The notes: generated by a model not told the origin, from the letters alone. A stretch of 64,000 bases of DNA from Candidatus Enterousia sp. (GCA_045606425.1 JAZURV010000004.1:46353-110352); one strand, 5' to 3'; shown: positions 1-53,691, counted from the stretch's first letter. Numbers and translations: made by a program.

Positions 1-493
1 ATCTGCCACCACATAATACTGGATACAAAATACCATTTTTTGTCGCATCGGACATCAATTTACGACAAAGATCCACTGCTTTTCCTTGCAGATCTGAAAA
101 TTCATTACTTGTCGCACTTACACCTGGTATAGACGTATATTGTTCCTTGTTTACTTTAATTATATTATTAGCAAAAGTTTCACATAACTCAGGACATTTT
201 TTACCGCTTTTACCACGACCGTTTCTTAAAAAATCAGATTTATTACATTGTGTTTTACATACACTTATTGCATCAATCACAGAAAACGTTTTGCGTTCCA
301 ATAAATCTCTTAGAATTCTATTTCTTGTAGTCACAACCTCATGGTACGTATTAATAGAACTAGAAAAACCAGCATTGTTTAAAGCTGTTTCAATAATTTT
401 TGAATTCCATTGCAATTGTGTAGTTTCGGTTATAAACCCTGCAAACACTGGCACCGCCATAAAACAGGATAAAATTAAAAATATTTTTTTCAT
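1..493 (-). CDS. secreted hypothetical protein, truncated by the window edge (cargo gene of A-family module 1)
   Basis: Own minus-strand translation from the ATG at 493-491 gives MKKIFLILSCFMAVPVFAGF..., a Sec-type signal peptide. The frame stays open to position 1. The start overlaps the stop of the upstream gene (TAATG). It is absent from the ORF track because it runs off the window. Confidence 0.55.
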   Translation of the reverse strand, partial: MKKIFLILSCFMAVPVFAGFITETTQLQWNSKIIETALNNAGFSSSINTYHEVVTTRNRILRDLLERKTFSVIDAISVCKTQCNKSDFLRNGRGKSGKKCPELCETFANNIIKVNKEQYTSIPGVSATSNEFSDLQGKAVDLCRKLMSDATKNGILYPVLCGGR

Positions 494-1476
494 TATCTAA
501 GTGCCTCCTCACATGCTTCTGCGACTTTGACAACCTTCTTGATTGCAGATATTTGTGTCGCATTAAATATTGTTGCTGTTGCAGATGTCGCAGTTGATGC
601 ACCCGCCATAACATTTGCGGTTGCATTTAAATTTTTTTCTTTCTGTTCATCACCTTTACGTGTTTTATCTGTATTAGCAAGGCTACTTGTTATTGTTCCA
701 ACAACACCTGTTCCGATACCTATACCAGAAGCAATTGTAGCCCCATTTGCACGTTTATTTATTGGTTTTATATCAATATATTCATAATCACGACATGCAC
801 TTATGATTTCATCTGCCTTTGCTAAATCATAATCCGTTGCGGTATTTTCTACCTTTGCAGCCAGTTTAACATTTGATAAATTTTTTATTGCAACAATACA
901 TCTATTTATCTTGTTTTCTAAATCATCATCGACTTTATTAGAGGCTGCTATCGCTGTTCCTGCAATATTAGTGACAGTTGATGTCGCCAAAGTCCCTGTT
1001 CTGATATTACCAAGTGTTTTTGATTTTTGTTCTAATTCATTGATTTTTTTAACATCTGCAGAAATAACCGAATCGGCACTGTATGCCGCACTGTGTATAG
1101 CAGAATAAAATTCCTGTTCATTTGCAATTTCTAACTGTTGAACAGGCACATTAGATTTCTCTGCAATCAATTTCACAACTTTTGCTTCCAAATCCTGTTG
1201 TTCTTTATCTACACTTGCCTTCGCAATACCTGTCCCCAGTGCAACACCACCGGCAACGGTACCAACGGCTGTTACTGCGGTATTTATTCCCGCCATTTTT
1301 TTCAAATCAGCCATACTATCACTTATACCAGCACATGCTGTTCTGGCATTTTGAACGGCAAAATTTAAATCATTGGATTCTGCATAAGCACAAAAGTTAA
1401 ATGTTAATAAAAACAGGCACGGCAAAACTACCCGTGTGTGTGTGTGTGTGTGTGTGTAGGTTTCTGCGGTTTTCAC
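493..1476 (-). CDS. A-family secreted/membrane-associated protein, paralog 1 (Gly/Ala/Thr-rich hydrophobic segments, 4 conserved Cys)
   Basis: Paralogous to 7561..8556 and 31955..32905 (shared AGINTAVTAVGTVAGG, GN.RTG.LA, VGTITSS.AN.DK, NATQI.AIKKV.KV motifs). Start re-assigned to the in-frame GTG at 1476, preceded by RBS AAGGAAG. The ORF-track start at 1542 lies upstream of a sigma70 promoter. Confidence 0.7.
   Translation of the reverse strand: MKTAETYTHTHTHTRVVLPCLFLLTFNFCAYAESNDLNFAVQNARTACAGISDSMADLKKMAGINTAVTAVGTVAGGVALGTGIAKASVDKEQQDLEAKVVKLIAEKSNVPVQQLEIANEQEFYSAIHSAAYSADSVISADVKKINELEQKSKTLGNIRTGTLATSTVTNIAGTAIAASNKVDDDLENKINRCIVAIKNLSNVKLAAKVENTATDYDLAKADEIISACRDYEYIDIKPINKRANGATIASGIGIGTGVVGTITSSLANTDKTRKGDEQKEKNLNATANVMAGASTATSATATIFNATQISAIKKVVKVAEACEEALR
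1434..1457. repeat. (GT)12 dinucleotide simple-sequence repeat inside the signal-peptide coding region
   Basis: Counted directly: 24 nt of uninterrupted GT. It encodes (Thr-His)n between the start codon and the hydrophobic core of the signal peptide. Confidence 0.95.
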
Positions 1477-1503
1477 GGCTTTTCTTCCTTTCTTTACCGT
1501 TCC

Positions 1504-1532
1504 ATTATACCATAATTTAAAAATATTTGCAA
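1504..1532 (-). promoter_or_regulatory. sigma70-type promoter for A-family paralog 1
   Basis: Minus strand reads TTGCAA, a 17-nt spacer, then TATAAT with extended -10 TG (TGGTATAAT). It lies about 25 nt upstream of the RBS and GTG. Confidence 0.5.
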
Positions 1533-1564
1533 AAAAAAACACCGGCGATTACCGGTGTTTTTTC
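1531..1564 (-). terminator. intrinsic terminator downstream of dnaA (bidirectional shape)
   Basis: A-run, hairpin CACCGG-cgatt-ACCGGTG, then T-run. Confidence 0.6.
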
Positions 1565-1595: not shown

Positions 1596-2873
1596 TTATT
1601 TGCAGATTTTTACCATGTCTTCAATTTCTGCATTTAATATCAAATCTGTGGCCTTTTGTTTTTCAATTTGGGTCAACGCATAAACAACTGTTGCATGGTC
1701 ACGTCCACCACAAATATTTCCAATTTCTGACAAAGATAAATTTGTAGATGCCTTTAACGCAGCCATCATAACCTGACGCGCACGAACCAAACGGCGGGCG
1801 CGCGAATTTCCGCAAATTTCATCAAACGAAACCGCCATCTTTTCGCACATCTTTTTAACCATCGCCAACGGTGTTTTTGTTTTATTCAATACATCAGACA
1901 ATAATTTTGACGCAACTTCCATATTGACGCGTTCACCCATCAATTCGCTGTATGTTTTTATTTTGTTGATAACACCATTTACCATATGACCGTCTGCTGC
2001 AATTTGTTTTGAAATTTCATCTGCAACAACAGAATCAACCCCGGCGCGCAACAACATATTGCGACGAACAAACGCATTTGGCCCCATGACATCAACCGCC
2101 AAACCAGACGCGAACAAAGATTGAATGCGTCTGTCAAAACCGTTCAACGCATTTGGCGCACAATTCGCAGTTAAAACAATACTTTTACCGGCAGTATGTA
2201 AATCCATCAACAACTGTAGAAATTCTTCACTGGTTGCGCGTTTCCCAGCCAGCGCACAAATATCGTCCATCACAAACATATCGCAATTGCGACAAAAATC
2301 TTTGAATGCGAATATAGTTCTGTCACGCAACGCACGCGCAAAATCTGCAACAAATTGCCCACCAGACATTCTGACCACGTTTTTATTTGTGGAATTACAA
2401 ATGCAATCCAACAACATAGTTTTTCCACAACCACTGGCGCCATATATAAACAATTGCGAAAAAGATGCGTCCGCCCCTGCAACCTTTTTACAGGCCGCAA
2501 CTGCAAACATATTTTCATCACATGTAATAAATTTATCGAAACCGTTTTTATTTTGTATTGTTTTTGTCGCAGGTTTATATTCGCAAACAACATTATCATT
2601 CGCGGTTGATGCAACATTATTATTTGCGCGCACAGAAATATTCAAATCCAAACAAAAATCCGCCGCTATATTTGCCAGGGTGTTTCCGTATTCCCTTTTG
2701 ACATAGTCGGCGGTGAATTGGTTTTGCGCAATCAGGTTCAAACAGTTTTCACATATATCTGCCTGCAACGGTGCAATCCATGCTGTAAATCCGGCAGAAT
2801 CTATTTTGGCCGCAAACGCCCCCATAACCGATTCCACATTTACATTTTTGTTCATCGCTACTGCTTGTTGCAT
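1596..2873 (-). CDS. dnaA: chromosomal replication initiator DnaA (short form, 425 aa)
   Basis: Walker A GASGCGKT, Walker B FVMDD, and C-terminal DNA-binding segment GGRDHATVVYA. Confidence 0.95.
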   Translation of the reverse strand: MQQAVAMNKNVNVESVMGAFAAKIDSAGFTAWIAPLQADICENCLNLIAQNQFTADYVKREYGNTLANIAADFCLDLNISVRANNNVASTANDNVVCEYKPATKTIQNKNGFDKFITCDENMFAVAACKKVAGADASFSQLFIYGASGCGKTMLLDCICNSTNKNVVRMSGGQFVADFARALRDRTIFAFKDFCRNCDMFVMDDICALAGKRATSEEFLQLLMDLHTAGKSIVLTANCAPNALNGFDRRIQSLFASGLAVDVMGPNAFVRRNMLLRAGVDSVVADEISKQIAADGHMVNGVINKIKTYSELMGERVNMEVASKLLSDVLNKTKTPLAMVKKMCEKMAVSFDEICGNSRARRLVRARQVMMAALKASTNLSLSEIGNICGGRDHATVVYALTQIEKQKATDLILNAEIEDMVKICK

Positions 2874-6136: not shown

Positions 6137-7564
6137 TTAAATATAATCACAATTTGTTTCTTCTGTATCTTTATTTATCTCTTCTTTACATTTGCATGGC
6201 ATACACTGACTTTCTTCACAATCTGTACAAAGTTCAGAAACAGGGCCATAATCAACTATTACCTTTAACGACGAAAAATCTGTTTGAACCTCAAACCATT
6301 TTATAAAATTATCTATGTTTGATGTTAAATCTATGCATCCCGCAGAACCCGCATAACTTCCCCCATGGATATACATATCTGGTTTACGTCCAAACAAATC
6401 TGTATTTGTGTCTGGGCGCAAAGGAACACGAAACTTTCCCCACGCCCCTCCTTCTTTATCTGCAAGAAGAGAATTATTATTGAAATTACCAACTGTTATA
6501 TTATCCATATATTGAATTTCGTTTTGATAGATATAATATACACCACTTGGTGTTGGGCCAATATGTTCACATGCTTGATATTCAGGTAATTGGCACACAG
6601 TTGGCCTTGAATCCCTTGGTGATTTTCCACGACCAGACACAGCAGGCCAAGATTTTATAACATTACCTTTATAATATACATCGAATTTCTTACCGTCAAA
6701 TTTCGTATAATAATCATTTGACAGTGCTGGCTTATGTTCTTTATCGTAAGAAACGACACAAACGCCACCTTTTTTTACAGAACCATAACCCCATTTTGAT
6801 AACTTTTCATTTAACAAACCACAATCGTTATGTTGGCATTCAAAATCAAAACCATAACCATCATAAATATATTTTCTGACACTTCGATTATCTAAAACGC
6901 CTGCTATTGGTTTAGCAGCCACCGCTTCTGATTTCCCACCATAAATTAAACAAAGCCCACGACCAAAATCTCTTTGTGTATATTGATTTGCATTAGCATT
7001 AGATTCTTTTGCGTCATCAAACTTAAATTCGTAATAAATTGGTTTCAATTTCGATGTACATTTTATGTAATCGTCCTTAACCCCTTCGCGAATATCAGAC
7101 GAACAAACTATTTCATCATTATATTTTTCTCTGGCATACTCTTGTGCCAAATTTTTTGCCTGAGCAAATTGAACTTCTATATCATAAAACACAAATTCTA
7201 TGCAACGCTCATTGTCTTTACCGATTTTGCCCTTGTCTTTACCACAAACTTCATAATATGTATAATTATCATCAGCGGCGCTTACTAATGCGCGTCTGAA
7301 TTCTGCCCGTTTGGCTTTGTCTTTTGTTCTGTCCCATCCTGCGGCATCACATATCTTAGCTATCGATTCCGCACTAACCGTATTTTTTGGATTGTTATTG
7401 TTTAATTCCATATTATACACACTTATCACCTTTTCCCGAACGGTCTTGTCTGGAAAATATTGCCGTAATACACTTAATGCTACATTAGCTGGAATATGTA
7501 TATTCGCATACGAATTTATCGTCATCAAACACATCGAAATTGCACAGAATATTTTCTTTATCAT
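6137..7564 (-). CDS. secreted protein with C-terminal Tlde1/DUF2778-like L,D-transpeptidase-fold toxin domain
   Basis: Signal peptide MIKKIFCAISMCLMTINSYA from the ATG at 7564. C-terminal region: FDGKKF..WPAVSGRG..GPTPSGVYYI..FRVPLRP..GRKPDMYIHGGSYAGSAGCIDL (the H...S.GC catalytic motif of the YkuD-like fold). ATGA overlap with the upstream A-family gene. Confidence 0.7.
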   Translation of the reverse strand: MIKKIFCAISMCLMTINSYANIHIPANVALSVLRQYFPDKTVREKVISVYNMELNNNNPKNTVSAESIAKICDAAGWDRTKDKAKRAEFRRALVSAADDNYTYYEVCGKDKGKIGKDNERCIEFVFYDIEVQFAQAKNLAQEYAREKYNDEIVCSSDIREGVKDDYIKCTSKLKPIYYEFKFDDAKESNANANQYTQRDFGRGLCLIYGGKSEAVAAKPIAGVLDNRSVRKYIYDGYGFDFECQHNDCGLLNEKLSKWGYGSVKKGGVCVVSYDKEHKPALSNDYYTKFDGKKFDVYYKGNVIKSWPAVSGRGKSPRDSRPTVCQLPEYQACEHIGPTPSGVYYIYQNEIQYMDNITVGNFNNNSLLADKEGGAWGKFRVPLRPDTNTDLFGRKPDMYIHGGSYAGSAGCIDLTSNIDNFIKWFEVQTDFSSLKVIVDYGPVSELCTDCEESQCMPCKCKEEINKDTEETNCDYI

Positions 7565-8556
7565 TTCAATACCCCCGTACAACCTGATGATACTTTGGCA
7601 ACTTTCTTTATCGCTGCAATTTGCGTTGCATTAAACACTGTCGCCGCCGCAGACGCTGTCGTTGTGGCGCCCGCCATAACATTTGACGCAATATTTAAAT
7701 TTTTTTCTTTCTTTTTTCCTGAATCCGTATTGTCGTTTCTGACTTTATCACTGTTTGCGATGCTACTTGTTATCGTTCCAACACCACCCAATCCTGCACC
7801 AACAGATGACGATATCATCGCACCACGTCCACGTTTGTTTATTGGGCTGATATCTACATATTCATATTCACGACATGCTTTATATATTTCTTGCGCTTCA
7901 CTGACATCTGTGCCAGCCAATTTGGCGGATAATATCGCATTATTTAAATCTTTGGTCGCAGATATACATGCATCAACCTGACCCTGAATATCGTCTTTGT
8001 TGATTGTGCGACTGGCGATAATCGCACCCGCAACATTAGTCGCTGTATTTCCCGCCAATAATCCTGTGCGCCAATTACCCTGTCTTTTCGATTTCTTATC
8101 CAACTCTTTTATTTCTTCTGTTATATCCTTTGCATGCGCAGTTTCATACTCATCGCATTCTTTCAAAAATGCGACTTTGTCTTCTGCTGTTGCTTCTGGT
8201 CCTTCGTATTCATTAGACAACCTTTCCAATTCTTGTTCCAATTCTTCAATTTTGCTGTCTGTGTTTGCTTTTGCAATCCCTGTTGCTGTTGCGCCAATAC
8301 CCAATCCGGTTCCAACCGCTGTCACCGCAGTATTTATTCCCGCCAAAACCTTTATATCATGTAAATTTTCATCTATATCAACACATGCGCGATATGTGTT
8401 TTGTAATGCAGTGTTTAAATCTAAAACTTCGGCAAAAGATGTGAACGGAATTAAAACCGTTACGAAAAACACCGTTGTTGTCCAATAAAAAACAACCACG
8501 CATCTATACGTACAAAGTCCCAAAGTTTTTACAATTTTTATCCCCTTCTTCACCAC
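7561..8556 (-). CDS. A-family secreted/membrane-associated protein, paralog 2
   Basis: Paralog of 493..1476 and 31955..32905. Exact start uncertain (GTG at 8556 or downstream). Confidence 0.7.
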   Translation of the reverse strand: MVKKGIKIVKTLGLCTYRCVVVFYWTTTVFFVTVLIPFTSFAEVLDLNTALQNTYRACVDIDENLHDIKVLAGINTAVTAVGTGLGIGATATGIAKANTDSKIEELEQELERLSNEYEGPEATAEDKVAFLKECDEYETAHAKDITEEIKELDKKSKRQGNWRTGLLAGNTATNVAGAIIASRTINKDDIQGQVDACISATKDLNNAILSAKLAGTDVSEAQEIYKACREYEYVDISPINKRGRGAMISSSVGAGLGGVGTITSSIANSDKVRNDNTDSGKKKEKNLNIASNVMAGATTTASAAATVFNATQIAAIKKVAKVSSGCTGVLK

Positions 8557-8622
8557 GATATTGTATCACATTTATGGGAATTATACAATAAAAACACAGA
8601 TGAATAATTATTCCAAATCATA

Positions 8623-10369: not shown

Positions 10370-11968
10370 TTAGTTCAGTGGGGCGCCCCAATGCTGTTGA
10401 ATACTGCGTTCTGCGTCCATCGGGCTGACCAAAACTTGCGGTGTCAAGATAACAACCAAAACTTCACGCGATGCGGCGGTTTCGCGCGAACCAGACAATG
10501 CCATAAAGTCTGCGTCGCCAAGGCCATATCTGGTATCATCATTCTTTTGTTTTTCAAACCCAGACACAACTAACATTTGACCAGATTCCATGATGACTTC
10601 CTGCATGAATGAACGTTCTTCAACCTCTGGCAATTGCAGTGTGACTGCACCAATTGTTTGTGTTGACATTTTCAACAATTCGCGCACAGACATTTTGAAC
10701 AACAGCAATATTTTCCCGTTTTCCAAAACATTTGGCAATAATTGCATTGAAAAACCTGTTTCCAAATCGTCTTGGTCAACCGTACTGGATTCAACAGTTG
10801 TAAATGTACGCGATTCGAATCGTTTGATGTAACCTGTTGATTTTGTGTTTGTCACAGGTGCGACACGATTATTACGCGTCGTGACGCCAACATTTGTGAC
10901 CAACGATACCTTGCCCTGCTTTGCCAATGCCTCTATCAGCGCATTGGACCCCGCCAGACGCGACATAGACCCGTTACGAATTTGGTCTTCGGTATATGTG
11001 CCGGCAATCCCTGTTGCCGCTTCGGCTACCTTGTTAGACAACACTGCGATATTCATTGACGAAGCCTCTGTCGATGCCAAATTGTTCTTTGGGTTTGCAA
11101 CAATGTTCAACCCAGACGCAGAATTTATCGCTGCCGCCAGATTCAACCCGAACGCCGATTCGTTTGACAAAGACACCTGTAATACCTTCACATCTATCGT
11201 CACCAATTGTGACAATCTTTTGTTTTGTTTTGTGATATATTCGCCAACACGATTCAGTACAGATGGCGACGCAGTCACAGTAATTGTCCCCAAACTGCGT
11301 GACACTGTAAATTGAGCATTCTTAGAATTATTTATAATAGAATTTATGGTTGCTTCGACTTCGTCCCATTCTTTCAGTGTAGATTCCAACGAAACCTGGT
11401 TTCCTGAATCAGTTTGCACAGACGACTGATACGACACATCTGTCCCCAGCGCATATAATGTATAAGTACGCGTTTCTGTTTCATAGAAAACAATTGAATC
11501 TTTGTCATAATACCACAACAAATCCAAATCTGTCGCAATTTGTGACAGCAATCCCGACAATTTACCAGTATATGCAACATCAACTGTCTTTCTTAATTTT
11601 TCAGCATCGACCTGGCTGTCGATTTTCACAGGGATACCAGTTATTGAATTTATATCGTTCGCCAACACCTGCAAAGTGACTGGTTCGTTTAACAAAATAG
11701 TCACCCCCGTATCGGTTTCGAATTTTGATGGCAAATTATTTTTGTGTTCCAACAAAGTGGATTTGTTTCCCAACCAAACACCTTCGGACATGGAAACAGT
11801 GTCACTGCTGGTGACCTTGGCCGGTGGATTCTTTGCCATTTCGAATGCTTCGTATGCATTGACAAAGTTTTTATCAACCGTTGCAGACACCTTGGCTGAT
11901 TCTTTCAATGTGCACCCAGTCAGTGCAACAATCAAGCCTATTAAACAGATATTAAAACGAATTTTCAT
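10370..11968 (-). CDS. secretin-family outer-membrane lipoprotein, PilN (type IVb pilus / R64)-like
   Basis: Lipobox LIVALTGC. C-terminal secretin domain: LLPNVLENGKILL..LPEVEERSFMQEVIMESGQMLVVSGF..REVLVVILTPQVL. Confidence 0.7.
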   Translation of the reverse strand: MKIRFNICLIGLIVALTGCTLKESAKVSATVDKNFVNAYEAFEMAKNPPAKVTSSDTVSMSEGVWLGNKSTLLEHKNNLPSKFETDTGVTILLNEPVTLQVLANDINSITGIPVKIDSQVDAEKLRKTVDVAYTGKLSGLLSQIATDLDLLWYYDKDSIVFYETETRTYTLYALGTDVSYQSSVQTDSGNQVSLESTLKEWDEVEATINSIINNSKNAQFTVSRSLGTITVTASPSVLNRVGEYITKQNKRLSQLVTIDVKVLQVSLSNESAFGLNLAAAINSASGLNIVANPKNNLASTEASSMNIAVLSNKVAEAATGIAGTYTEDQIRNGSMSRLAGSNALIEALAKQGKVSLVTNVGVTTRNNRVAPVTNTKSTGYIKRFESRTFTTVESSTVDQDDLETGFSMQLLPNVLENGKILLLFKMSVRELLKMSTQTIGAVTLQLPEVEERSFMQEVIMESGQMLVVSGFEKQKNDDTRYGLGDADFMALSGSRETAASREVLVVILTPQVLVSPMDAERSIQQHWGAPLN

Positions 11969-14938: not shown

Positions 14939-15616
14939 ATGTTAGAAATAAAAAATCTTTGTGTTGAAATGAACAACAAACCATTACTGACAGATATAAA
15001 TATAATCATATCTGACGGTACACGACACAGACTGGCAGGACATAATGGTTCTGGGAAATCAACACTGGTAAACACAATTGCAGGCGATTCAAATTATAAT
15101 GTCACCCACGGACAAATTATATTTGATGGCGTTGACATAACGCATGAAAACGCGACAACGCGCGCACTGATGGGGATATTTCTGGGCGCACAAAATGTTC
15201 CAGAAATTCCGGGGCTTACGGTTCTCAGTTTCCTTAAACATTCAATGATTGCACACACACATTTCAACACTGGCAAAGATTTATCCATGGGTGAATTTTT
15301 GGAAAAACTGGAAAATGCACGTGAACAATTGAACATTCCAAAAGAATGGTTAAATCGATATGTAAATGTTGGTTTTTCAGGCGGCGAAAGGAAACGTTTA
15401 ATGTTATTGCGTTTAATTTTAACCAAACCAAAATTGGCGATTCTGGACGAACCAGATTCTGGGGCAGATGCTGATACACAACAGCAAATTATTGACACTA
15501 TAAACAACCTGCCAGACACTGCGTTTTTATTCATTTCGCACCAAAACACATTTGCAAATAAAATAAAAACTTCCCAAACAACCACTTTGGATAATGGCAA
15601 AATTGTGATACAATAG
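14939..15616 (+). CDS. sufC: Fe-S cluster assembly ATPase SufC
   Basis: ABC ATPase: Walker A GHNGSGKST, signature FSGGERKR, Walker B LAILDEPDSG. Confidence 0.9.
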   Translation: MLEIKNLCVEMNNKPLLTDINIIISDGTRHRLAGHNGSGKSTLVNTIAGDSNYNVTHGQIIFDGVDITHENATTRALMGIFLGAQNVPEIPGLTVLSFLKHSMIAHTHFNTGKDLSMGEFLEKLENAREQLNIPKEWLNRYVNVGFSGGERKRLMLLRLILTKPKLAILDEPDSGADADTQQQIIDTINNLPDTAFLFISHQNTFANKIKTSQTTTLDNGKIVIQ

Positions 15617-30074: not shown

Positions 30075-30110
30075 AAAAACAGGCACCTTTCCGGTGCCTG
30101 TTGTTTTTTT
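30075..30110. terminator. bidirectional intrinsic terminator
   Basis: AGGCACC-tttcc-GGTGCCT flanked by A-run and T-run, between convergent genes. Confidence 0.7.
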
Positions 30111-31059
30111 ATTTTAATAAAAGAATACTTTTAGTCTCTTTATCAAACCACACATCCTGTGCACCACCATGATTTGCCCCACCAATAATAGATTTGTTTC
30201 CAGTAAAAACCCCCATTATATTACCTTCATCATCAAATATACCACCACCAGAATTTCCTTTCCATACTTGACAATTTTTATCTTTACCATTACTAGAATA
30301 TTCACAATATGACACTTTTAACACATCACCATTTTCAAAAAATTCGTTATAATAAGAATTTTCATTATTACTTAAATACTGCAAAAAATAACTAACAAGC
30401 GGAAAATCTACCCAAACACCATTTTCATAAAATCCCAGCATCTTTTCTTTTCCTGTTGCTTCAACACCCACTTTTTCTTTTAAATATTTAATATACTTTT
30501 CTTTAAACGACTGTATTTCTTTGTCGCTCATGATTTTAAGCGCACCATAGCCAATCACTCTGGCGTCATAATCAAGCGTGAATGGACCAACTCCGAATTT
30601 GTGCTTATTACTAATATTTACCGAATTTAATTCTTTTTCTGAGATTGTATAAAAGGTCCAATCACCAGAATAATTTTGAAAACCACGTTTTATAGTAACA
30701 CCATTCACTACCTGCTTTTCCTCATAAAAATCCCCTACTTCTTTTTTATTTGCTTCAAATATTTTTCCATCTTGTGATTCTGATTTTATTTTATCCACAG
30801 GAGCATTTAAATCATCGATAACACAATGCTTAGCTGTATATAAATATAACTTACCGTCCTTTTTAACAATTGTTCCTGTGCAACGTTTATTTTTATTGTA
30901 TACCATAACTACTGCATTATACGGTTTTTGTTTCTTTTGCTGATCGGTTACATAACAACGTTTATCCACAGTATATTCAGACGGATTTGTACACGCATCC
31001 TTTGCCAAAGATGGTGACAGGAACAAAAAGAATAATAAAGACACAAATATTTTTTTCAT
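30109..31059 (-). CDS. secreted trypsin-like serine protease (S1B/V8-like), copy 2
   Basis: Signal peptide. PYNAVVMV..TGTIV..LYTAKHC (His), DWTFY (Asp), GNSGGGIFD (Ser). ATGA overlap with the upstream gene. Confidence 0.75.
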   Translation of the reverse strand: MKKIFVSLLFFLFLSPSLAKDACTNPSEYTVDKRCYVTDQQKKQKPYNAVVMVYNKNKRCTGTIVKKDGKLYLYTAKHCVIDDLNAPVDKIKSESQDGKIFEANKKEVGDFYEEKQVVNGVTIKRGFQNYSGDWTFYTISEKELNSVNISNKHKFGVGPFTLDYDARVIGYGALKIMSDKEIQSFKEKYIKYLKEKVGVEATGKEKMLGFYENGVWVDFPLVSYFLQYLSNNENSYYNEFFENGDVLKVSYCEYSSNGKDKNCQVWKGNSGGGIFDDEGNIMGVFTGNKSIIGGANHGGAQDVWFDKETKSILLLK

Positions 31060-31958
31060 CTTTTTTTATTTTTATACCCTTTCACGCCTTCTATCCATCC
31101 ACTTAACGATTCATAATAATATTCCGGTTTTATTCCATTTGAAGATGCATCTCTTTCTTGCCCTATAGCAGGTCTTGATACAGAACATAAAATTCCAACT
31201 ATCTCGTTGCTATCAATATCTATCAGTGCCGAACCAGAAAGCCCTGGGGCGCTAGGACAACTTGTATGAATCTCGGAATCTATACTTGTAATTCTACATC
31301 CAGTACGCACTTTCATATTATGACTATCACCAAATATGCACATAAAGCTATCAGTAGGACAATCTACACAATTTGCTTTTTTGTCCACAGAACATGCATG
31401 ATTTCTTTTCAAACTAATTTCTATATCTGCCATCGCTTCATAAGCATTACTTCCTGTGATTCTACCATTTTTTCGCAACCAATCAGTATATAACTGCTTT
31501 ATTATTTTCAATTCATTATTAGATAATGGTTTTAAACTATCGTAACCAACAACCATTAAATTACTTGATTGCCTTGTATTGGCAGCAACTTTTAACACTT
31601 TCCCAGAAAAAGCATCTGGATTAACTATCCATGCAAAATCATGTTCATCTTTATTATCTTGCAAATATTGTCCAACCATACCAGAGTGTTTTTTCCCATC
31701 CGAGGTATAATAATCTATCATTTTTTCTGATCCGGTATTATCAACTACATGTCTACAAGTTAAAATTATATCTTCAGATACAAAAGTTCCTGTACCTGGG
31801 CTTCCGTTATCTTCAATCCTGACCACAGTATTATATGGGAACAAAGATTTCTCTTCTTGTGTAACATATCTACGCGAATCTCCACCATAACCAACCATAT
31901 CACCCAAACAAAAACAAGGAAAAAACATAATAAAAAAAGATATATATTTTTTTATCAT
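31056..31958 (-). CDS. secreted trypsin-like serine protease (S1B/V8-like), copy 1
   Basis: Signal peptide. PYNTVVRI..GTGTFV..ILTCRHV (His), DFAWI (Asp), GLSGSALID (Ser). ATGA overlap with the upstream A-family gene. Confidence 0.75.
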   Translation of the reverse strand: MIKKYISFFIMFFPCFCLGDMVGYGGDSRRYVTQEEKSLFPYNTVVRIEDNGSPGTGTFVSEDIILTCRHVVDNTGSEKMIDYYTSDGKKHSGMVGQYLQDNKDEHDFAWIVNPDAFSGKVLKVAANTRQSSNLMVVGYDSLKPLSNNELKIIKQLYTDWLRKNGRITGSNAYEAMADIEISLKRNHACSVDKKANCVDCPTDSFMCIFGDSHNMKVRTGCRITSIDSEIHTSCPSAPGLSGSALIDIDSNEIVGILCSVSRPAIGQERDASSNGIKPEYYYESLSGWIEGVKGYKNKKR

Positions 31959-32905
31959 TTTAAAACCTCTTCACAACGCTGTGCAGATTTCATCAATTTT
32001 TTTGTTAATGTTATCAACGAGATATTGAAACCTGTTTCTGCGGCTCCTGTTGCTATGTTTGTACCCGCCATTATATTTGCAGTTGTATTTAACGCCTGTC
32101 CTTTCTTCTTGTCTTTTTCGCTTAAATTCATCCTGTTTTCCATATTTGTATATTTATCAGAGTTTGCAGCGGCACTGGTTACCGTCCCAACAACACCAAC
32201 AGCCGTTCCTGCTATAGAAGTCCCCATAACGACTTTCATTCGATTTTCTATTTTTTCAATATCTTTTGTGTTTATTTGATTACACCACGTACGAACTTTA
32301 TCTAACTGTTTAACAACAACACTCTCATTTGGGTTTACGCCTGCCCTTTTTAATTCTAAACTTGTATCAGAAACAGTTTTTATGACCGCATTACAAGCCG
32401 ACACATGCTGAACAAGTTCTGATTGTTTTGTATTCAATCCAGACATTATTGCTGATGCTAAATTTGTACCGATTGTCCCCGCCAACAAGCCCGTCCGCCA
32501 ATTACCCAATTTCTTTGATTTATCAATTTTCTTTTGCAATTCAGCAATTTGTGCCATTGGTTGTAAAACATTTGTAAAAAATTGTTCGTCACTCATAGCT
32601 TCTACACCTTCGGCCGTACACCCACCAGACGCACAAATTTGTTCAACCAATTCATCTATTTCTTTGTCTTCTTGTGATTTTTTAATTCCGGCGTACAATG
32701 CCCCACCTGCCGCAACCGTTCCAACAGCAGTAACTGCTGTATTCGCTTTTGAAATATTTGCCACTTTTCCTATTTCATCAGAAATCCCTGAACATGCGAT
32801 TTGTGCAGCTTCAAAAACTTGTTCGGCTTGTTTTACTACCCCCATATCATCAGCAATTGATGTAAAAGGAATAAGGAATAAAAAGAATATATATAATTTT
32901 TTCAT
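31955..32905 (-). CDS. A-family secreted/membrane-associated protein, paralog 3
   Basis: Signal peptide MKKLYIFFLFLIPFTSIA plus the shared family motifs (NTAVTAVGTVAAGG, GNWRTGLLAG, VGTVTSAAANSDK, C-terminal C..VLK). Confidence 0.7.
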   Translation of the reverse strand: MKKLYIFFLFLIPFTSIADDMGVVKQAEQVFEAAQIACSGISDEIGKVANISKANTAVTAVGTVAAGGALYAGIKKSQEDKEIDELVEQICASGGCTAEGVEAMSDEQFFTNVLQPMAQIAELQKKIDKSKKLGNWRTGLLAGTIGTNLASAIMSGLNTKQSELVQHVSACNAVIKTVSDTSLELKRAGVNPNESVVVKQLDKVRTWCNQINTKDIEKIENRMKVVMGTSIAGTAVGVVGTVTSAAANSDKYTNMENRMNLSEKDKKKGQALNTTANIMAGTNIATGAAETGFNISLITLTKKLMKSAQRCEEVLK

Positions 32906-32919
32906 TTACGTACCGTTTT

Positions 32920-34380
32920 TCAATTCTTTAAATATTTTGTTGGGTTATATGCTTTTGTACCCTTACGAATTTCAAAATGCAGTTGTGGTTGGTCAACCTT
33001 GCCTGTTTTGCCGACGCGTCCGATTTGTCCCCCAACATTGACACGACTTCCGCGTTTAACCGACATAGAATCCAAATGCGCATAAATTGTCATCCAACCA
33101 TCGGCATGCTGAATAATAATCAAATTTCCCATACCCTTTACTTCATTCCCAGCATACGCAACAACACCGTTTTCTGCCGCCTTTACCGCGGTTCCCAACC
33201 CGGCAGCAATATTTATACCATCATTAAATAACCCATTGTTTTTTGCACCATACGCAGACAAAATCCGTCCACGAACAGGCCACGAAAATTTAGACCCAGA
33301 CCGCGCCGCAATTTGTGGCAATTGTTTTTTTGGATTTGACGATATCTTCTTTGTGTTTGTTGTTTTATTTGTCGCAACCTTAGGCTGCAGCACAGTTTTT
33401 GATGTTGTTTTGGCAGACGCAACAGATTTGATTTCTTTTGTTTTTGGCGCCTGTGCAACAGTTTTCTTTGCCGGTGTAATTTTATTAGTTGTTGATTTTA
33501 CTGGCACCTGCTTCACATCAGACACAGAAACAGTTTTAACCTCTTTCAATTTTGGAACCTTGATTTTTTGACCAACTGCCAAAGTAAACGGACTGGACAA
33601 TTTATTCATAACTGCCAAATCATTGACTGGAATTTCATATTTACGCGACAGAGAATACAAAGTGTCACCCTTTGCCACAATGATTTCTTGCAAATCAACG
33701 CGCGTTGTTGCATTTGGTTTAACAGGTTCTGGAACCACAGTTTTTTCAGATTTTATTTCGGCAACTTTTTCAACCGATATGACATTTGGCACATCTTTTT
33801 TTACAGTGACCGAACCACTTCGCGTTGTCAATTTTTGTCCGATGGATAAAGTATACGGTTCATGCAAATTATTTATCTCTGCCAATTCGGACATGCTGAT
33901 TCCGTTTTTGCGCGCCAAAGAATATAATGTATCACCCCTTTGCACGACAATTATTCCAGCGTCGGTTTTTTGCACTTCTTTCTTTTCTGCGACTTCGTCA
34001 ACCACAGTATTTCCACCATACAGCGGAACGACAATATAGTCATCAGGAATTTCAGAAACCACTAATTCTTCTGTTTTTGCATCTGGTATTTCTTCATCTT
34101 TTGATTCAGGAACCAAAACATAATCATCAACACTGGCATACAGAACATAATCATCTATGTTTGCAGAACCATACAATTCTGGTGACGCATAGACCCCGTA
34201 ATCGGTCACCGCAGAATTATATATTTCAGGCTGAATATTTGGGTCTGCCAACAACGCCGGATATCTGTCTTCGATAAACATACCGATACTGTCAGGAATC
34301 GACGAAATTTTTGGTTGCAAATCACATGCGCACAACACCAGCGCACACATAACAGTCGCTTTAAATATATTTTTCCACAT
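32920..34380 (-). CDS. LysM-domain / M23 peptidase lipoprotein (NlpD-like)
   Basis: Lipobox VLCAC from the ATG at 34380, two LysM repeats (GDTLYSL.RK..I), and a C-terminal M23 domain (IIIQHADGW.T.YAHL, PQLHFEIRK). Confidence 0.85.
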   Translation of the reverse strand: MWKNIFKATVMCALVLCACDLQPKISSIPDSIGMFIEDRYPALLADPNIQPEIYNSAVTDYGVYASPELYGSANIDDYVLYASVDDYVLVPESKDEEIPDAKTEELVVSEIPDDYIVVPLYGGNTVVDEVAEKKEVQKTDAGIIVVQRGDTLYSLARKNGISMSELAEINNLHEPYTLSIGQKLTTRSGSVTVKKDVPNVISVEKVAEIKSEKTVVPEPVKPNATTRVDLQEIIVAKGDTLYSLSRKYEIPVNDLAVMNKLSSPFTLAVGQKIKVPKLKEVKTVSVSDVKQVPVKSTTNKITPAKKTVAQAPKTKEIKSVASAKTTSKTVLQPKVATNKTTNTKKISSNPKKQLPQIAARSGSKFSWPVRGRILSAYGAKNNGLFNDGINIAAGLGTAVKAAENGVVAYAGNEVKGMGNLIIIQHADGWMTIYAHLDSMSVKRGSRVNVGGQIGRVGKTGKVDQPQLHFEIRKGTKAYNPTKYLKN

Positions 34381-34435
34381 CTTCACATTCTGAATTATAT
34401 CATAAAATCGGTGTAAAATAAAATACTTATACAAA

Positions 34436-35137
34436 CTAGTCACGCATAAATAACAAACTGATTTCGAACAAAACCAACATTGGCAAAGCCAACAAAATCT
34501 GGGACATAATATCGGGCGGTGTCAACATCGCACCCAAAACAAACGCGCCAATTATCACATACCGACGGCTTTTAATCGCGCTTTCTTTGGATAATAAACC
34601 TGCCCTGTTCAACCCAACCAGCACCAATGGCAATTGAAACACCAAACCAAAAACCTTTAACAACCCAATTGAAAAAGCCAAATATCCCTTTATCGATGGC
34701 ATCAGAACCGTTGGAACAGATACCGCTTCGTTTATTTCAACAAAAAATCCAAACACCACCGGAAACAAGACATAGAACGCAAACGCCGCCCCCAATACGA
34801 ACAACAACGGCGACAACACAAATATAGGTACTAAAAATTGCTTTTCATTTTTATGTAATCCCGGTGCGATATATGCCCAAATATTCCACAACAACACCGG
34901 CACAGTTATAATCAGTGCGACCAATGTAGCCAATGAAAACTGTATCATTAAACCATCTGTTATTTCTGTGTACAACAACGCCGCATTATCCCACACATTT
35001 ATCAGGGGCGTGGTCAAAAACACCTCTGTCCAATCAGATATAACCCAACCAAAAACGAACGCTATGATAAACACCACCGCAGTCCACAGCATACGACGAC
35101 GCAATTCTGCAAAATGTTGCATCAGTGTCATTTTCAT
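34436..35137 (-). CDS. tatC: twin-arginine translocase subunit TatC
   Basis: HF.ELRRR N-terminus and 6-TM TatC pattern. Confidence 0.9.
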   Translation of the reverse strand: MKMTLMQHFAELRRRMLWTAVVFIIAFVFGWVISDWTEVFLTTPLINVWDNAALLYTEITDGLMIQFSLATLVALIITVPVLLWNIWAYIAPGLHKNEKQFLVPIFVLSPLLFVLGAAFAFYVLFPVVFGFFVEINEAVSVPTVLMPSIKGYLAFSIGLLKVFGLVFQLPLVLVGLNRAGLLSKESAIKSRRYVIIGAFVLGAMLTPPDIMSQILLALPMLVLFEISLLFMRD

Positions 35138-43399: not shown

Positions 43400-43402
43400 A
43401 AC

Positions 43403-43427
43403 AACCGCCACACGGCGGTTTTTTTTG
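43403..43427 (+). terminator. dksA intrinsic terminator
   Basis: AACCGCC-acac-GGCGGTT plus T-run. Confidence 0.75.
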
Positions 43428-43447
43428 TGCGGATTACAGAAAGCAAG

Positions 43448-43547
43448 TTCCCCTCCTGCGGAGGGGTGGTCTTTTGTTGTCAAGGTTGTTCGTTTTTTTT
43501 CAACCCTCCCCGCCACTTCGTGGTCCCCCCGCCCCGGGCGGGGAATA
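43448..43547. repeat. GC-rich palindromic MITE-like element, copy A
   Basis: Left arm TTCCCCTCC-tgc-GGAGGGG; right arm CCCTCCCCGCC...CCCCGCCCC-ggg-CGGGGAAT. Confidence 0.6.
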
Positions 43548-43644
43548 CAAGCAAGGTTTCGGAAACAAAGTACACCGAAACCGTTGCGGTATACGCCAGA
43601 GCGCAAGCGCATGGCGAATTTTGCACCGTTCTTGGCACAGTCTA

Positions 43645-43868
43645 AATTCCCCTCCCACGGAGGGGTGGATTGGCGGAACGCAGTGACGACAAGACGGGGA
43701 GGGGTCAAATAAAAATTTATTATTGAATTCATTTTTTTTCATAAATAAGATGTAAAACAAGATATGTCTAATATTTTGATATGGATAAAGCGAAATATAG
43801 ATTTAATAAACTGAATTTAATTTGACCCCTCCCCGCCCTGCGGGCCCTCCCCTCCGGCGGAGGGGAAT
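43645..43868. repeat. GC-rich palindromic MITE-like element, copy B (long AT-rich centre)
   Basis: AATTCCCCTCC-cac-GGAGGGG ... GGGGAGGGGTCAAAT, an AT-rich centre of ~110 nt, then ATTTGACCCCTCCCCGCC...CCCCTCC-ggc-GGAGGGGAAT. Confidence 0.7.
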
Positions 43869-43944
43869 CTGCGATGTTCCTAAGACGACCTAAAAAAAAA
43901 GAACCCGGCAAGGGGTTCTTTTTTTTATGGAACACACACACATA

Positions 43945-44619
43945 TTATTGTGGTGTATTGAATGTCCAACCGGTAAAGATTTTACCTGGTTTGTGGACTG
44001 CTTTCCGTGGCGTTCTGATATCACCACCGTATGTGACAGAACCGGCGTCGTTTGCCGCGATATCTTCCGCAGACGCGTCCGCCCATGTGATGCTGATAGT
44101 ATTCGCAGTGCACGACGACGAACCAGCAGTCGACGAATACCCCGTTGCACAGGGTTCGATTCCTTGATCAATTGTTTCATTAAAAGTATATGTTCCACCA
44201 GAACAAATATTATTTGCTGGACAAATTGTGCACACATCAACCCCCGCTGGTAAATAATATCCGGCAGAGCAAGTATGCGAATTTGGTTCAAAAATCGCAA
44301 TTATTTCGTGTGGCGCATTTGCAGCACAGGTATTGGTTAAATTATTTACAAATAAGTTTGGATTGTTTAAGCCCTGATTTTCGTTTTTTTTGAAATTAAA
44401 GACTCCTCCTGTGCAACTATAATCAATCGGACATGTACGACATCCAAGGGTATTTGCCGGTAAAAATTCACCAGAAAAACACTCGTATTGGTTTGGTGTA
44501 AACACAGCAACAAACATATCTTCTTCAGGACCGCCACATGAATTTGGTATTGGTTCGGTATAATACGTGAAAGCATTCAAAGAACACCAAGCAATAAAGA
44601 TGACAAATATTTTTTTCAT
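43945..44619 (-). CDS. Cys-rich secreted protein with conserved C-terminal B-repeat domain
   Basis: Signal peptide; repeated C..G.Y/F..C..CP motifs; C-terminus ISITW..DIAANDAGSVTYGGDIRTPRKAVHKPGKIFTGWTFN. Confidence 0.75.
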   Translation of the reverse strand: MKKIFVIFIAWCSLNAFTYYTEPIPNSCGGPEEDMFVAVFTPNQYECFSGEFLPANTLGCRTCPIDYSCTGGVFNFKKNENQGLNNPNLFVNNLTNTCAANAPHEIIAIFEPNSHTCSAGYYLPAGVDVCTICPANNICSGGTYTFNETIDQGIEPCATGYSSTAGSSSCTANTISITWADASAEDIAANDAGSVTYGGDIRTPRKAVHKPGKIFTGWTFNTPQ

Positions 44620-46068: not shown

Positions 46069-46845
46069 TTATTTCGTCACATAACAATCCAGACCGTCGG
46101 ATTTAGCATTTCTGCAAAAACCATTTGCGTCATTCGCATTCTGGAACGCAACACGCAATCTGTATGTTGTTTTTCCGTTGACCTGGGCAGCCAGGATAAC
46201 AAACTGTTTACCCGAAAACAGATTCGCATGTGATGCACGCAATTTTTGTTCTGCACTTTGTGCCGCCGCGCGTGTTCCATACGAACCAAACTGGACATAA
46301 ATTCCGCCATTCGTCGCAGTCTGGGTTGGCTTTGGCGTCGCCTTGGCCACTGGTTTTGGTGCCGGTTTTGCCGCTGGTTTCGCGGCTGGTTTTGCCACCG
46401 GTTTTGTTTCGCCTTTGTCTGGGTTAAATGTGACCTCTTTCCTGTCGGAAATCACACGCACAGGCGCGCCATTTGTTTCCACAGGTTTTGCATCAACTGG
46501 TTTTGCCGCCGCCGGTTCAATTTTAACCGGTTCTGGTTGTGCATCGGGTTGTGGCGCAACCTCAACAGGTTTTGCCGGGACATTCAAATCGTCCATTGGT
46601 GCCGGCGCATTATCAACATTTTGCGTTGGCGCATCTAAATCGATATTCACAGATGTCGACGAATCGCCCCCAACACGTGCGATTATAATCCACACAGCCA
46701 ATATAATTATCAACAACCCCAACCCCATCAACAGCCATGGTTTCTTTGGTCGTGGTGATGTAAATGGCGTTGCCTCTGGCAATGCGTCAACCTGACCTGC
46801 GTCATCTTCCAGGTCTAATAAATCCAAATCTTGTTCTTGGTCCAT
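46069..46845 (-). CDS. SPOR-domain protein with Pro/Ala/Lys-rich linker
   Basis: N-terminal TM, PAAKPAAKPAPKP repeats, and a C-terminal SPOR-like region GGIYVQFGSYGTRAAA...YRLRV. Confidence 0.75.
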   Translation of the reverse strand: MDQEQDLDLLDLEDDAGQVDALPEATPFTSPRPKKPWLLMGLGLLIIILAVWIIIARVGGDSSTSVNIDLDAPTQNVDNAPAPMDDLNVPAKPVEVAPQPDAQPEPVKIEPAAAKPVDAKPVETNGAPVRVISDRKEVTFNPDKGETKPVAKPAAKPAAKPAPKPVAKATPKPTQTATNGGIYVQFGSYGTRAAAQSAEQKLRASHANLFSGKQFVILAAQVNGKTTYRLRVAFQNANDANGFCRNAKSDGLDCYVTK

Positions 46846-51381: not shown

Positions 51382-53691
51382 TTGATGTGTCAAAGCCTTC
51401 TTTTTTATGATATAATAACAACCATGGCAATAAAGTTCAACATTTTATCAAACAGTGATTCTGGCAAGGGTTTAAAGATTTTTGAATCCAGCGCATACAA
51501 AGAACACGAACAAACACCCATGGCGCGAAAATTCTGGGAATTGCGCTGGGATGTTGGCATTTGGTTGGTTTGTGCACTGATGTTTGGTTTGTCTTTTGCG
51601 ATTGAACATGTCTGGCGATATGGATGGGGCCCGGCCAGTCAACACTGGGTGTCTATCTATATGAAAAATTTATTTATGACATTTGGGCTGTCCGCAATTG
51701 CAGAGGTTCCATATTGGATTATGCGAACGGTTCAACACCCTGATTTTGCGTCAATTACACCATTGTTGCCGATATTGGGGTATTTCCTTTTTGCAGACGA
51801 TACATTTAAATCTGAATTTAACCCGCACAGCAAAGACAGATATGACGAAAAATCTGCCCGCAAGGCAACCGCAGACGACATCAAAAAAATGGGTGCGGAC
51901 TACACGAACAAAGAGGGTTTATTCCATGGCTTTATGATGGTATTGGGGTATTTTAAATACAAAGGCAAACAAACCCCGCTTATGTTTGACGAAAGTTTGT
52001 CTGCGTTATGTTTGGCGCCTCCGGGAACTGGTAAAACCGAAGGGGTTGTTATTCCAACAATTCTTGATTGCGATAATGTGTCAATGATTATCAACGACCC
52101 GAAACCAGAATTGAAACAAAAAACATCTGCATATCGTGCAACGGTTGGTCCGGTGTTTATTATGAATTGGGCGGGTCAGGACGACCCAGAACGCGGGATA
52201 TATTATCCGTCATGGAATCCGTTATCCCCCGACCATGTTCCATACAACCCTGAACAGCGCGATTTGTATATTGATTCAATATGTAAAGTATTGGTTCCAG
52301 ATGCCAAATCTGGTAACGCCGACCCACACTGGGCAAATACTGGACGCGCAGGATTATCTGGTTTGGTGAATTTTATCGTGTCAAAGGTTGAACGTGCCAA
52401 GGCTGATGATTATTTCTATGCCCGTATAAACAACGGAACATTAAACAGCGACGATGCTGCATTATTGGGCGATTATTATTTATCCATGATGAACGACCCG
52501 AACGCGTATGCGGCATATTCCCTGTTACAGAAAGGCGAACTAAGCACATCGAATTATGTCCATGTTGGCACATGGGCAAATATCCCCGACGCATGGCGCG
52601 GTAAAGAGGCATCTTTTTCCATGATATTGGATTGGCTGACATCGTCCCAGGTTGCCATTGCCGAAGAAATGGAAGAACGCAGACGTCAGGGCGACCAAAT
52701 GGTTGTTATGGCAGACCCAATGAAAGATTTGTTATTAAACGCGGTTGATGAAGCGCGCAGATATTCATACGCAAACCGTGCCGTATCAGAATTGACCCAA
52801 TTGGCAAACACACCTGATAAAGAACGCGGTTCTATTCTTTCCACAATGATGGAAGGTCTGGCGATATTCCGTAATGCCGCGGTTCGCAACCGAACATCTC
52901 ATTCTGATTTTCATTTTAAAGACCTGCGTGGAATACGCGACCCGCGCGACGGAAAAATCAAACCAGTCAGTGTGTACCTGTCCATCAACATGGTTGATGC
53001 CCAGGCTTTAAATCCAATCACTGCAATCTTTATCGAATTGATGTCCAGTTATTTGTTGGCACACAACACGAACCAGGTTGTTGATGGCGAAAAAATGGGG
53101 CCATATCCGGTATTATTTGTTTTGGACGAAATGCCAAAAATGCAAAAACTGGACGCAGTTATCCAGGGGCCAGACCTGGGGCGCGGACAAAAAGTGTCTT
53201 ATTTAATTATCGGTCAAGATATTCACCAAATCAGCGAAAGATACGGGAACGATGCGGCATCTACAATTATTTCAACGACCGCGGCAAAAATCGTTCTGCG
53301 TCAAAACGACCCTGAAACCGCACGCATGTTTGCACAAATGATTGGTATGAAAATGACCAAGAAAGTCGAAGTCAAAGATGGCAAAGAAATTGAAACACCG
53401 AAAGAAGAACCCCTTTATACCGAATTCGACATTATGAAATTAGGCAAAGGAAAACAATTGGTTATTTACCAGGGCTGGTACCATCGCCCGATTGAGGCAG
53501 AACAAGTGTTCCAGTTTTATAACAAAACGCCTGTTGAACAAAAACTACACCAAAAAGTCATGATGGGCGAAGCGTCACCGTTACCAGAATTTTTAATTCC
53601 TATGCATCACGCAATTATGGGGTATTCGGGTACACCACGGGTTTTAAATCCAAACACCAATGAAATAAAAATATTGGAACCGCTGCATTAA
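51382..53691 (+). CDS. type IV secretion coupling protein (VirD4/TraG family), orphan
   Basis: N-terminal TM helices, Walker A APPGTGKTEG, Walker B VLFVLDEMP, and GQDIHQISERYG. The start may be the ATG at 51424. Confidence 0.8.
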   Translation: MMCQSLLFYDIITTMAIKFNILSNSDSGKGLKIFESSAYKEHEQTPMARKFWELRWDVGIWLVCALMFGLSFAIEHVWRYGWGPASQHWVSIYMKNLFMTFGLSAIAEVPYWIMRTVQHPDFASITPLLPILGYFLFADDTFKSEFNPHSKDRYDEKSARKATADDIKKMGADYTNKEGLFHGFMMVLGYFKYKGKQTPLMFDESLSALCLAPPGTGKTEGVVIPTILDCDNVSMIINDPKPELKQKTSAYRATVGPVFIMNWAGQDDPERGIYYPSWNPLSPDHVPYNPEQRDLYIDSICKVLVPDAKSGNADPHWANTGRAGLSGLVNFIVSKVERAKADDYFYARINNGTLNSDDAALLGDYYLSMMNDPNAYAAYSLLQKGELSTSNYVHVGTWANIPDAWRGKEASFSMILDWLTSSQVAIAEEMEERRRQGDQMVVMADPMKDLLLNAVDEARRYSYANRAVSELTQLANTPDKERGSILSTMMEGLAIFRNAAVRNRTSHSDFHFKDLRGIRDPRDGKIKPVSVYLSINMVDAQALNPITAIFIELMSSYLLAHNTNQVVDGEKMGPYPVLFVLDEMPKMQKLDAVIQGPDLGRGQKVSYLIIGQDIHQISERYGNDAASTIISTTAAKIVLRQNDPETARMFAQMIGMKMTKKVEVKDGKEIETPKEEPLYTEFDIMKLGKGKQLVIYQGWYHRPIEAEQVFQFYNKTPVEQKLHQKVMMGEASPLPEFLIPMHHAIMGYSGTPRVLNPNTNEIKILEPLH

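Follow-up and report, generated by a model that had tools for sequence, protein, structure and literature searches.

A dinucleotide repeat in a signal-peptide coding region as a probable phase-variation switch in an uncultured alphaproteobacterium

To our knowledge, phase variation mediated by simple sequence repeats (SSRs) has been documented almost entirely in cultured pathogens (Neisseria, Haemophilus, Helicobacter, Campylobacter). A GT run near the 5' end of a gene from an uncultured alphaproteobacterium raises the question of whether such a switch is also present in this lineage. The first-pass annotation of the window, by which we mean the whole 64 kb stretch of DNA that was analysed, had proposed the run as a candidate switch.

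A perfect dinucleotide tract at the start of a gene for a predicted secreted protein

Direct reading and Tandem Repeats Finder both gave a perfect, uninterrupted (GT)12 run at 1434-1457 (12.0 copies, 100% matches, no indels), and the coordinates first assigned to this 24-nt run were exact. It is the only simple repeat of more than 5 units in the window. The next-longest dinucleotide runs had 5 units, homopolymers reached at most 9 nt and tri- to heptanucleotide runs at most 4 units, in agreement, within these 64 kb, with the earlier remark that simple repeats are otherwise few. A 14-nt GT pattern was expected 0.03 times in dinucleotide-preserving shuffles, and in the window it was present only at this tract. 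Smaller repeats were noted elsewhere. Homopolymers of A or T, 8-9 nt long, are clustered within 43400-44400 (at 43419, 43493, 43732, 43892, 43919 and 44384), and an (AC)5 run at 43932-43941 is located just downstream of the stop of the ORF at 43945-44619 (-). A (CA)5 run is present at 15252. In-frame tandem repeats with a period of 12/24 nt (GGTTTTGCCGCC-like, 2-4.6 copies, 76-80% matches) occupy 46327-46406 inside the ORF at 46069-46845 (-), the gene for a SPOR-domain protein, where they probably encode a repetitive linker whose length varies.

The minus strand carries the tract as (AC)12, inside the ORF at 493-1476, the A-family gene (Table 1), in the frame GTG AAA ACC GCA GAA ACC T(AC)12 GGG TAG. 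Translation gave Tyr-(Thr-His)3-Thr, as the annotation of the tract as (Thr-His)n had it. The public gene call P0001 (327 aa) uses the same GTG start as this ORF, and the position of the predicted promoter (1532-1504) puts the GTG at 1476-1474 ahead of any other in-frame start downstream of the predicted transcription start. Among relatives the start codon is conserved as GTG or ATG, a GGTAAAGAAAGG(A/G) block is kept at the ribosome-binding site and an ATATG(G/A)TATAAT block is present in all related loci. The relatives also have a hairpin and T-run at the matching place, with compensatory changes. This hairpin is likely the terminator of the upstream dnaA gene, insulating the A-gene promoter; it was absent from the output of the terminator scan. 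Rfam and tRNA scans gave no match near the locus.

The N-terminus of the A protein, MKTAETY(TH)3T-R-VVLPCLFLLTFNFC-AYA↓ESNDL, is that of a typical signal peptide with AYA↓E, its n, h and c regions and A-x-A cleavage motif being judged by eye, and the alignment showed four invariant Cys. The tract precedes the hydrophobic core (RVVLPCLFLLTFNFCAYA↓ES) and follows the GTG with its AAGGAAG ribosome-binding site, which is where the first-pass annotation had put it. The leader thus has the layout of a standard signal peptide, the repeat lying in the n-region. A lipoprotein reading was rejected, as the would-be lipobox has a Pro at position -1 and a non-conserved Cys (Gly in P0002).

To follow the frame consequences, the window tract was replaced in silico with n = 6-19 units. 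Full-length protein was obtained only at n = 6, 9, 12, 15 and 18, and all other values gave peptides of 12-29 aa. The proposal that gain or loss of one unit disables the A-family gene therefore held in the simulation, with translation ending after 12-29 codons. Both wrong frames reach a stop 1-12 codons past the tract, and the position of the first of these stops, the TAG at 1428..1430, is shared by 11 of 13 related loci. The window allele, with n = 12, is in frame and hence ON. The tract combines a location near the 5' end of an ORF, a unit length not divisible by 3 and truncation of the product by a one-unit change. Immediately after the tract there is a TTG codon that could permit low-level re-initiation and make the OFF state leaky.

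We consider it very probable, from the sequence evidence given here and below, that the (AC)n tract is a hypermutable SSR that acts as a translational on/off switch, i.e. a contingency locus. Slipped-strand mispairing in replication would add or remove 2-nt units. In the window lineage the GTG would be in frame with the gene body only if n is a multiple of 3; at other values ribosomes would halt at the TAG 3 nt or the TAA 12 codons past the tract, and neither signal peptide nor mature protein would be made. We infer slippage as the mechanism, as well as its rate and its reversibility within a population.

Table 1. Coordinates of features in the window (related contigs where named), followed by tract alleles with repeat number and predicted state
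Feature or allele	Position or repeat number	Strand or state	Description
Cargo gene, 5' part, cut by window end	1..493	-	signal peptide and conserved Cys-rich N-terminal domain of ~115 aa
TAATG overlap of A-gene stop and cargo ATG, one base	491..495	-	GAGGAGG 10 nt upstream of ATG
A-family gene, 327 aa	493..1476	-	secreted (predicted), all-helical (model), four invariant Cys, Gly/Ala/Thr-rich helices; no Pfam/NCBIfam family
Signal-peptide coding region, 32 codons	1381..1476	-	MKTAETY(TH)3T R VVLPCLFLLTFNFC AYA↓ES; from translation
TAA stop (..GSFAVPVFINI, stop)	1397..1399	-	frame at n = 2 mod 3, 12 codons past tract
TAG stop (GGG TAG)	1428..1430	-	frame at n = 1 mod 3, 3 nt past tract
(AC)12 tract, (GT)12 on + strand	1434..1457	-	putative hypermutable element; starts in codon 7, encodes (Thr-His)n
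GTG start codon, A-family gene	1474..1476	-	first in-frame start past predicted promoter; public gene call P0001
Ribosome-binding site AAGGAAG	1484..1490	-	7-nt spacing to GTG; from sequence
Sigma-70-type promoter TTGCAA, 17 nt, TG-TATAAT (extended -10)	1504..1532	-	predicted; 10/12 matches, TG present
Hairpin ACACCGG..CCGGTGT, then T-run (1531-1539)	1539..1558	-	from sequence and relatives
dnaA gene	1596-2873	-	upstream; end marked by hairpin and T-run 1558-1531
YkuD/Tlde1-like partner	6137-7582	-	after paralog 7561-8556
Two trypsin-like partners	31056-31958 and 30109-31059	-	after paralog 31955-32905
M23/LysM peptidase gene	32920-34443	-	paralog 31955-32905 directly after
135-aa gene after cargo	L001 5208-5615, L006 4585-4992, L008 3675-4082, L010 5053-5460		without signal peptide
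Window allele	n = 12	ON	leader GTGAAAACC
L006	n = 11	OFF	leader of window type (GTGAAAACC or close variant)
L009	n = 10	OFF	leader of window type (GTGAAAACC or close variant)
L004/L005	9 units, one A-to-G interruption	ON	leader of window type (GTGAAAACC or close variant)
L010/L011	n = 15	ON	leader of window type (GTGAAAACC or close variant)
L012	n = 18	ON	leader of window type (GTGAAAACC or close variant)
L001 and L003	n = 12	OFF	leader with one extra A (GTGAAAAACC)
L002	n = 11	OFF	leader with one extra A (GTGAAAAACC)
L007	n = 9	OFF	leader with one extra A (GTGAAAAACC)
L008	n = 13	ON	leader with one extra A (GTGAAAAACC)
L019	n = 11	ON	more distant; extra T past tract compensates
L013	n = 12	ON	more distant, 65% identity; recO/dsbA neighbourhood
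L018	n = 16	ON	more distant, 58% identity; ATG start

Tract length and reading frame in related metagenome contigs

DNA of the closest relatives was obtained from metagenome contigs in ENA and Logan. All 15 related contigs, which are not all independent (L001/L002/L003, L004/L005 and L010/L011 are possible same-sample reassemblies), have an AC tract in the corresponding position, behind a conserved promoter, ribosome-binding site and leader. Most share the neighbourhood dprA-dnaA-A gene-cargo-135-aa gene-dnaJ-gyrB. Tract lengths of 9, 10, 11, 12, 13, 15, 16 and 18 units were found. The comparison of repeat number across related genomes, which had been suggested as a check on the proposed switch, thus gave a range of 9-18 units around the perfect (AC)12 of the window, including steps that are not multiples of three units between near-identical strains. 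As for the predicted frame consequences, six contigs were out of frame with the gene body intact under purifying selection; the alleles were chosen partly for truncated gene calls, and their ON:OFF ratio is not a frequency estimate.

The most informative differences are between contigs with nearly the same flanks. The 4,001-nt alignment of L001 and L002 is free of mismatches and is broken only by one 2-nt gap, inside the tract (12 vs 11 units); the same holds for the 2,898-nt alignment of L002 and L003. The window and L006 share 96.7% identity over 3.8 kb and have 12 and 11 units, and a difference of 9 vs 12 units was seen between contigs at 95.5% identity. By these alignments, the tract changes faster than any other site. 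Apart from this difference, the contigs with 12 units (L001 and L003) and 11 units (L002) are identical; they may share one sample of origin, which is the only hint of switching within a population.

The same three contigs bear on the possibility that the lengths are sequencing or assembly artefacts, the true length being fixed and altered by stutter or assembler error. Dinucleotide repeats are stutter-prone, and 12, 11 and 12 units in what is perhaps one sample would fit this explanation. However, lengths from 9 to 18 units were seen against distinct sequence backgrounds and across projects and assemblers, a tract of 18-36 nt lies well inside one read, and identical contigs of separate assemblies concur (L004 = L005, L010 = L011, L001 = L003). 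Point-mutated and degenerate versions of the tract also exist. An artefact of this kind is therefore barely credible to us. In L004 (1729-3010) and in L005, which are identical contigs, dnaA was called as two pieces of 160 and 284 aa and the A-gene ORF is open far upstream; this reflects either a dnaA frameshift or faulty assembly.

A second length polymorphism was found upstream of the tract (window 1467-1476, -), where GTGAAAACC and GTGAAAAACC differ as A4 vs A5. With the A5 leader (L001-L003, L007, L008) the gene is in frame at n = 1 mod 3, i.e. at 10, 13 or 16 units. The A4/A5 difference shifts the in-frame repeat numbers, and ON alleles therefore use two frames over one leader DNA, which is read either as KTAETY(TH)n or as KNRRNL(HT)n. 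What is maintained is the DNA repeat and not the peptide.

The two frames also bear on whether the tract acts mainly by means other than the frame, as a (Thr-His)n spacer that tunes the signal peptide, a Z-DNA-prone element close behind the transcription start or a structured antisense poly(UG) RNA. In favour of such roles, the number of Thr-His units varies from 2 to ~5.5 among in-frame alleles, and alternating purine-pyrimidine DNA can adopt the Z-form. Twelve UG repeats are reported to be able to form a pUG fold (10.1101/2025.04.22.650042). Against these roles, the peptide is not conserved, given that the leader DNA is read in two frames by ON alleles and that degenerate leaders work without the repeat, and a functional (Thr-His)n peptide was rejected on these grounds. 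Since the mRNA has AC rather than UG repeats and the unit number, within its range of 9 to 18, is below 12 in many alleles, a pUG fold or Z-DNA as the main function was likewise rejected. Out-of-frame alleles are common and are explicable only by an effect on the frame. We regard a main role outside the reading frame as highly improbable.

If the out-of-frame alleles were merely broken, their gene bodies would be expected to decay. The 312-codon body was open in all six OFF alleles (L006, L009, L001, L003, L002 and L007). Pairwise dN/dS lay between 0.10 and 0.19 among OFF/OFF pairs and between 0.12 and 0.25 among ON/ON pairs. The open bodies and the similarity of these values to those of ON pairs indicate that the OFF alleles are not decaying pseudogenes. 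Tracts were still perfect between lineages at a synonymous divergence of ~1-1.5, and a neutral 24-36 nt stretch would not persist unchanged at such divergence, which points to ongoing slippage and/or selection for the repeat. An explanation by a neutral microsatellite and sporadic pseudogenisation, with no adaptive reversible switching, draws on the six sampled alleles that are out of frame, on lineages that have lost the tract without harm and on the unassigned function of the A gene. It does not account for the lack of any second lesion in the 312 codons of the OFF alleles at a dN/dS like that of ON alleles, nor for a tract that remains perfect and in place at this divergence in at least three genomic neighbourhoods. 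It would also have to accommodate the interleaving of ON and OFF alleles among close relatives, which requires repeated switching in both directions. We therefore consider the neutral explanation very unlikely, and the alleles are better described by a translational switch.

Further variation was seen outside the DNA set. Alleles known only as protein, in three further clusters at 90% identity, showed (HT)4 vs (HT)5, with inferred n = 9, 12 and ~14. An n = 14 allele was called from an alternative ATG, and truncated gene calls in these clusters begin at the TTG right after the tract or at an internal Met. Some lineages have degenerate leaders (..PYAHTRIV..) and are locked ON. When the JGI metagenome collection was searched for both flanks separated by a variable gap, 3 matches came up, all due to chance and lacking an AC tract. 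Among GTDB species genomes, protein relatives were confined to one locus at 70% identity (an 'uncultured proteobacterium' MAG), with an ordinary signal peptide and without the tract.

Relation to known phase-variable loci

We classify the locus as SSR-mediated translational phase variation. The mechanism is textbook; what is new is the lineage of the host, the gene family and a validation that draws on metagenomes only. A literature search for AC/GT repeats as bacterial phase-variation tracts found no specific precedent and none for this lineage. The CT repeats in the signal-peptide coding regions of Helicobacter pylori hopZ, sabA and sabB are of the same general type. In oipA/hopH of H. pylori, a CT dinucleotide repeat in the signal-peptide coding region has On and Off alleles, with 5CT, 6CT, 8CT, 9CT and 11CT each found in both On and Off strains as flanking indels shift the register (PMC10564699). 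As in oipA, the A-family gene has a dinucleotide repeat in the 5' part of the ORF that codes for the signal peptide, where a slipped-strand change would shift the frame. Repeat count alone is also no predictor here: at n = 12 the gene is ON with the leader GTGAAAACC but OFF with GTGAAAAACC, and at n = 11 it is OFF in the window lineage but ON in L019, which has an extra T past the tract. The two loci differ in the unit (AC here, CT in oipA) and in the product, a predicted all-helical secreted protein as against a Hop beta-barrel, with no homology between them. Membership of the Helicobacter Hop/OipA family was rejected, given no Pfam/NCBIfam match and a model that is entirely helical. Unlike H. 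pylori, a gastric pathogen, the host is an uncultured alphaproteobacterium of animal gut-type metagenomes that is known from sequence alone.

In Neisseria opa genes, a CTCTT pentamer lies in the leader-peptide coding region, and its translation is part of the hydrophobic core. The parallel with opa drawn in the first-pass annotation stands as far as the location of the repeat in the leader-peptide coding region is concerned; the oipA dinucleotide is the closer precedent, opa having a pentamer. In both cases the repeat is inside the signal-peptide coding region and a frame shift toggles a secreted or surface protein, or in our case would toggle a predicted secreted one. Every opa copy carries the repeat, in contrast to one of three paralogs here, and the A protein has no homology to the Opa family and a fold that is helical in the model.

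Enrichment of repeats near N-termini is a signature of phase variation (PMC3315296). Contingency loci in general include those with tetranucleotide repeats in Haemophilus influenzae and with homopolymers in Campylobacter and Neisseria (PMC2651432, PMC6321876, PMC5084427). The A gene resembles them in having a candidate hypermutable repeat near the N-terminus of a gene for a product that is, here by prediction, exported, ON and OFF alleles among close strains and an intact ORF. The genomes of these organisms have tens of such loci, compared with one within the 64 kb window. The present locus offers a well-supported case in an uncultured commensal-type alphaproteobacterium, built from sequence and from natural ON/OFF alleles in public metagenomes, and illustrates how tract length, reading frame and dN/dS in metagenome assemblies can serve to validate contingency loci.

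The A family and the downstream cargo gene

The A protein belongs to a family with 1,511 database clusters at E <= 1e-3 and more than 1,500 members, of which the few that are named come from Alphaproteobacteria MAGs. Pfam and NCBIfam searches with the A protein, its paralogs and 52 family members gave no meaningful family, and a profile search of PDB sequences with the A protein gave nothing relevant. The family has four invariant Cys, and Gly, Ala and Thr are abundant in several helices. An AlphaFold2 model from a 52-sequence alignment was all helical (pLDDT 72, moderate confidence; pTM 0.53), and Foldseek found no significant match to it (best E = 0.048). The pore-forming toxins AhlB and SmhB appeared only at E = 0.17-1.1 with a TM of ~0.19, and a ClyA/AhlB-type alpha-helical pore-forming toxin was rejected for want of significant fold or sequence similarity to solved members. 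The model and the leader are consistent with the A-gene product being a Sec-exported, all-helical protein. The locus provides both a reason and a handle for studying this large uncharacterised family.

The A-gene stop and the cargo start overlap by one base (Table 1), and gene calls of related loci have the same stop/start overlap. In OFF alleles ~950 nt of mRNA up to the cargo would be left without translation, and cargo expression would probably be lowered through lost translational coupling and/or Rho polarity. Co-silencing of the cargo in the OFF state, which had been proposed together with the switch, is plausible on the gene arrangement. Since the cargo gene has its own GAGGAGG Shine-Dalgarno sequence, which could support some independent initiation, silencing may be partial or act via polarity.

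Cargo genes were located in seven contigs (L001 3933-5180, L006 3822-4559, L008 2564-3682, L010 3848-5041, L013 4002-5246, L018 3980-5227, L019 3987-5090). Their products are 245, 367, 372, 397 or 415 aa long, with C-terminal parts that are unrelated between near-identical strains. The cargo proteins of L001 and L006, for example, match at 95.7% identity across residues 1-116 and have nothing in common beyond them. This combination of a conserved N-terminal region and variable C-terminal domains is that of polymorphic toxins. A Pfam search of five cargo variants found no domain, and no known toxin or immunity domain; a homologue search with the partial cargo protein of the window returned one uninformative match. 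The 135-aa gene that follows the cargo is 84-95% identical across cargo types, and it was rejected as a cognate immunity gene because it is conserved whatever the cargo type. The locus thus has neither the toxin domain nor the co-varying immunity gene of a polymorphic toxin-immunity system. The cargo alone resembles polymorphic modular secreted effectors, in that ~115 N-terminal residues are shared and C-terminal parts are swapped. The paralogous loci, which pair an A-family gene with YkuD/Tlde1-like or trypsin-like enzymes, extend the likeness. It differs from polymorphic effectors in having no known toxin/immunity domain and in being followed by a gene, the 135-aa one, that is not a cognate immunity gene.

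The two other A-family paralogs in the window, at 7561-8556 (-) and 31955-32905 (-), are 44% and 34% identical to the A protein. Both lack the tract, as the first-pass annotation had noted. The second has an ordinary MKKLYIFF.. signal peptide. The leader of the first (8470-8560, -) is homologous to that of the switch gene and has ACGTATAGATGC at the tract position, possibly the remnant of a decayed tract or else the ancestral state, and GTA in place of the GTG start. Both paralogs overlap (ATGA) with the next gene, for a predicted secreted enzyme. From these partners and the neighbouring M23/LysM peptidase gene, the A family seems to be consistently paired with cell-wall or protein hydrolases.

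A secreted two-part module of A protein and cargo under diversifying selection is a reasonable guess. The switch would mark the secreted A protein and its modular partner gene as under fluctuating selection, and we infer phage, host immunity or competitors as the kinds of selective agent. A more specific and rather unlikely proposal is that the switch gates an undescribed two-gene secreted module of gut/rumen Alphaproteobacteria, in which an all-helical, disulfide-stabilised, Gly/Ala/Thr-rich A 'carrier' would be translationally coupled to an effector with a conserved docking domain and swappable C-termini. If true, this would be a polymorphic system of a new kind, for envelope targeting or antagonism, with bet-hedging expression. 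Elsewhere in the window, a VirD4/TraG-type type IV secretion coupling protein is encoded at 51382-53691 (+) and a secretin-family protein at 10370-11968 (-); both genes lie among housekeeping genes (dnaA, dprA, plsY, gatB, thrS, recJ, PBP2, tatC).
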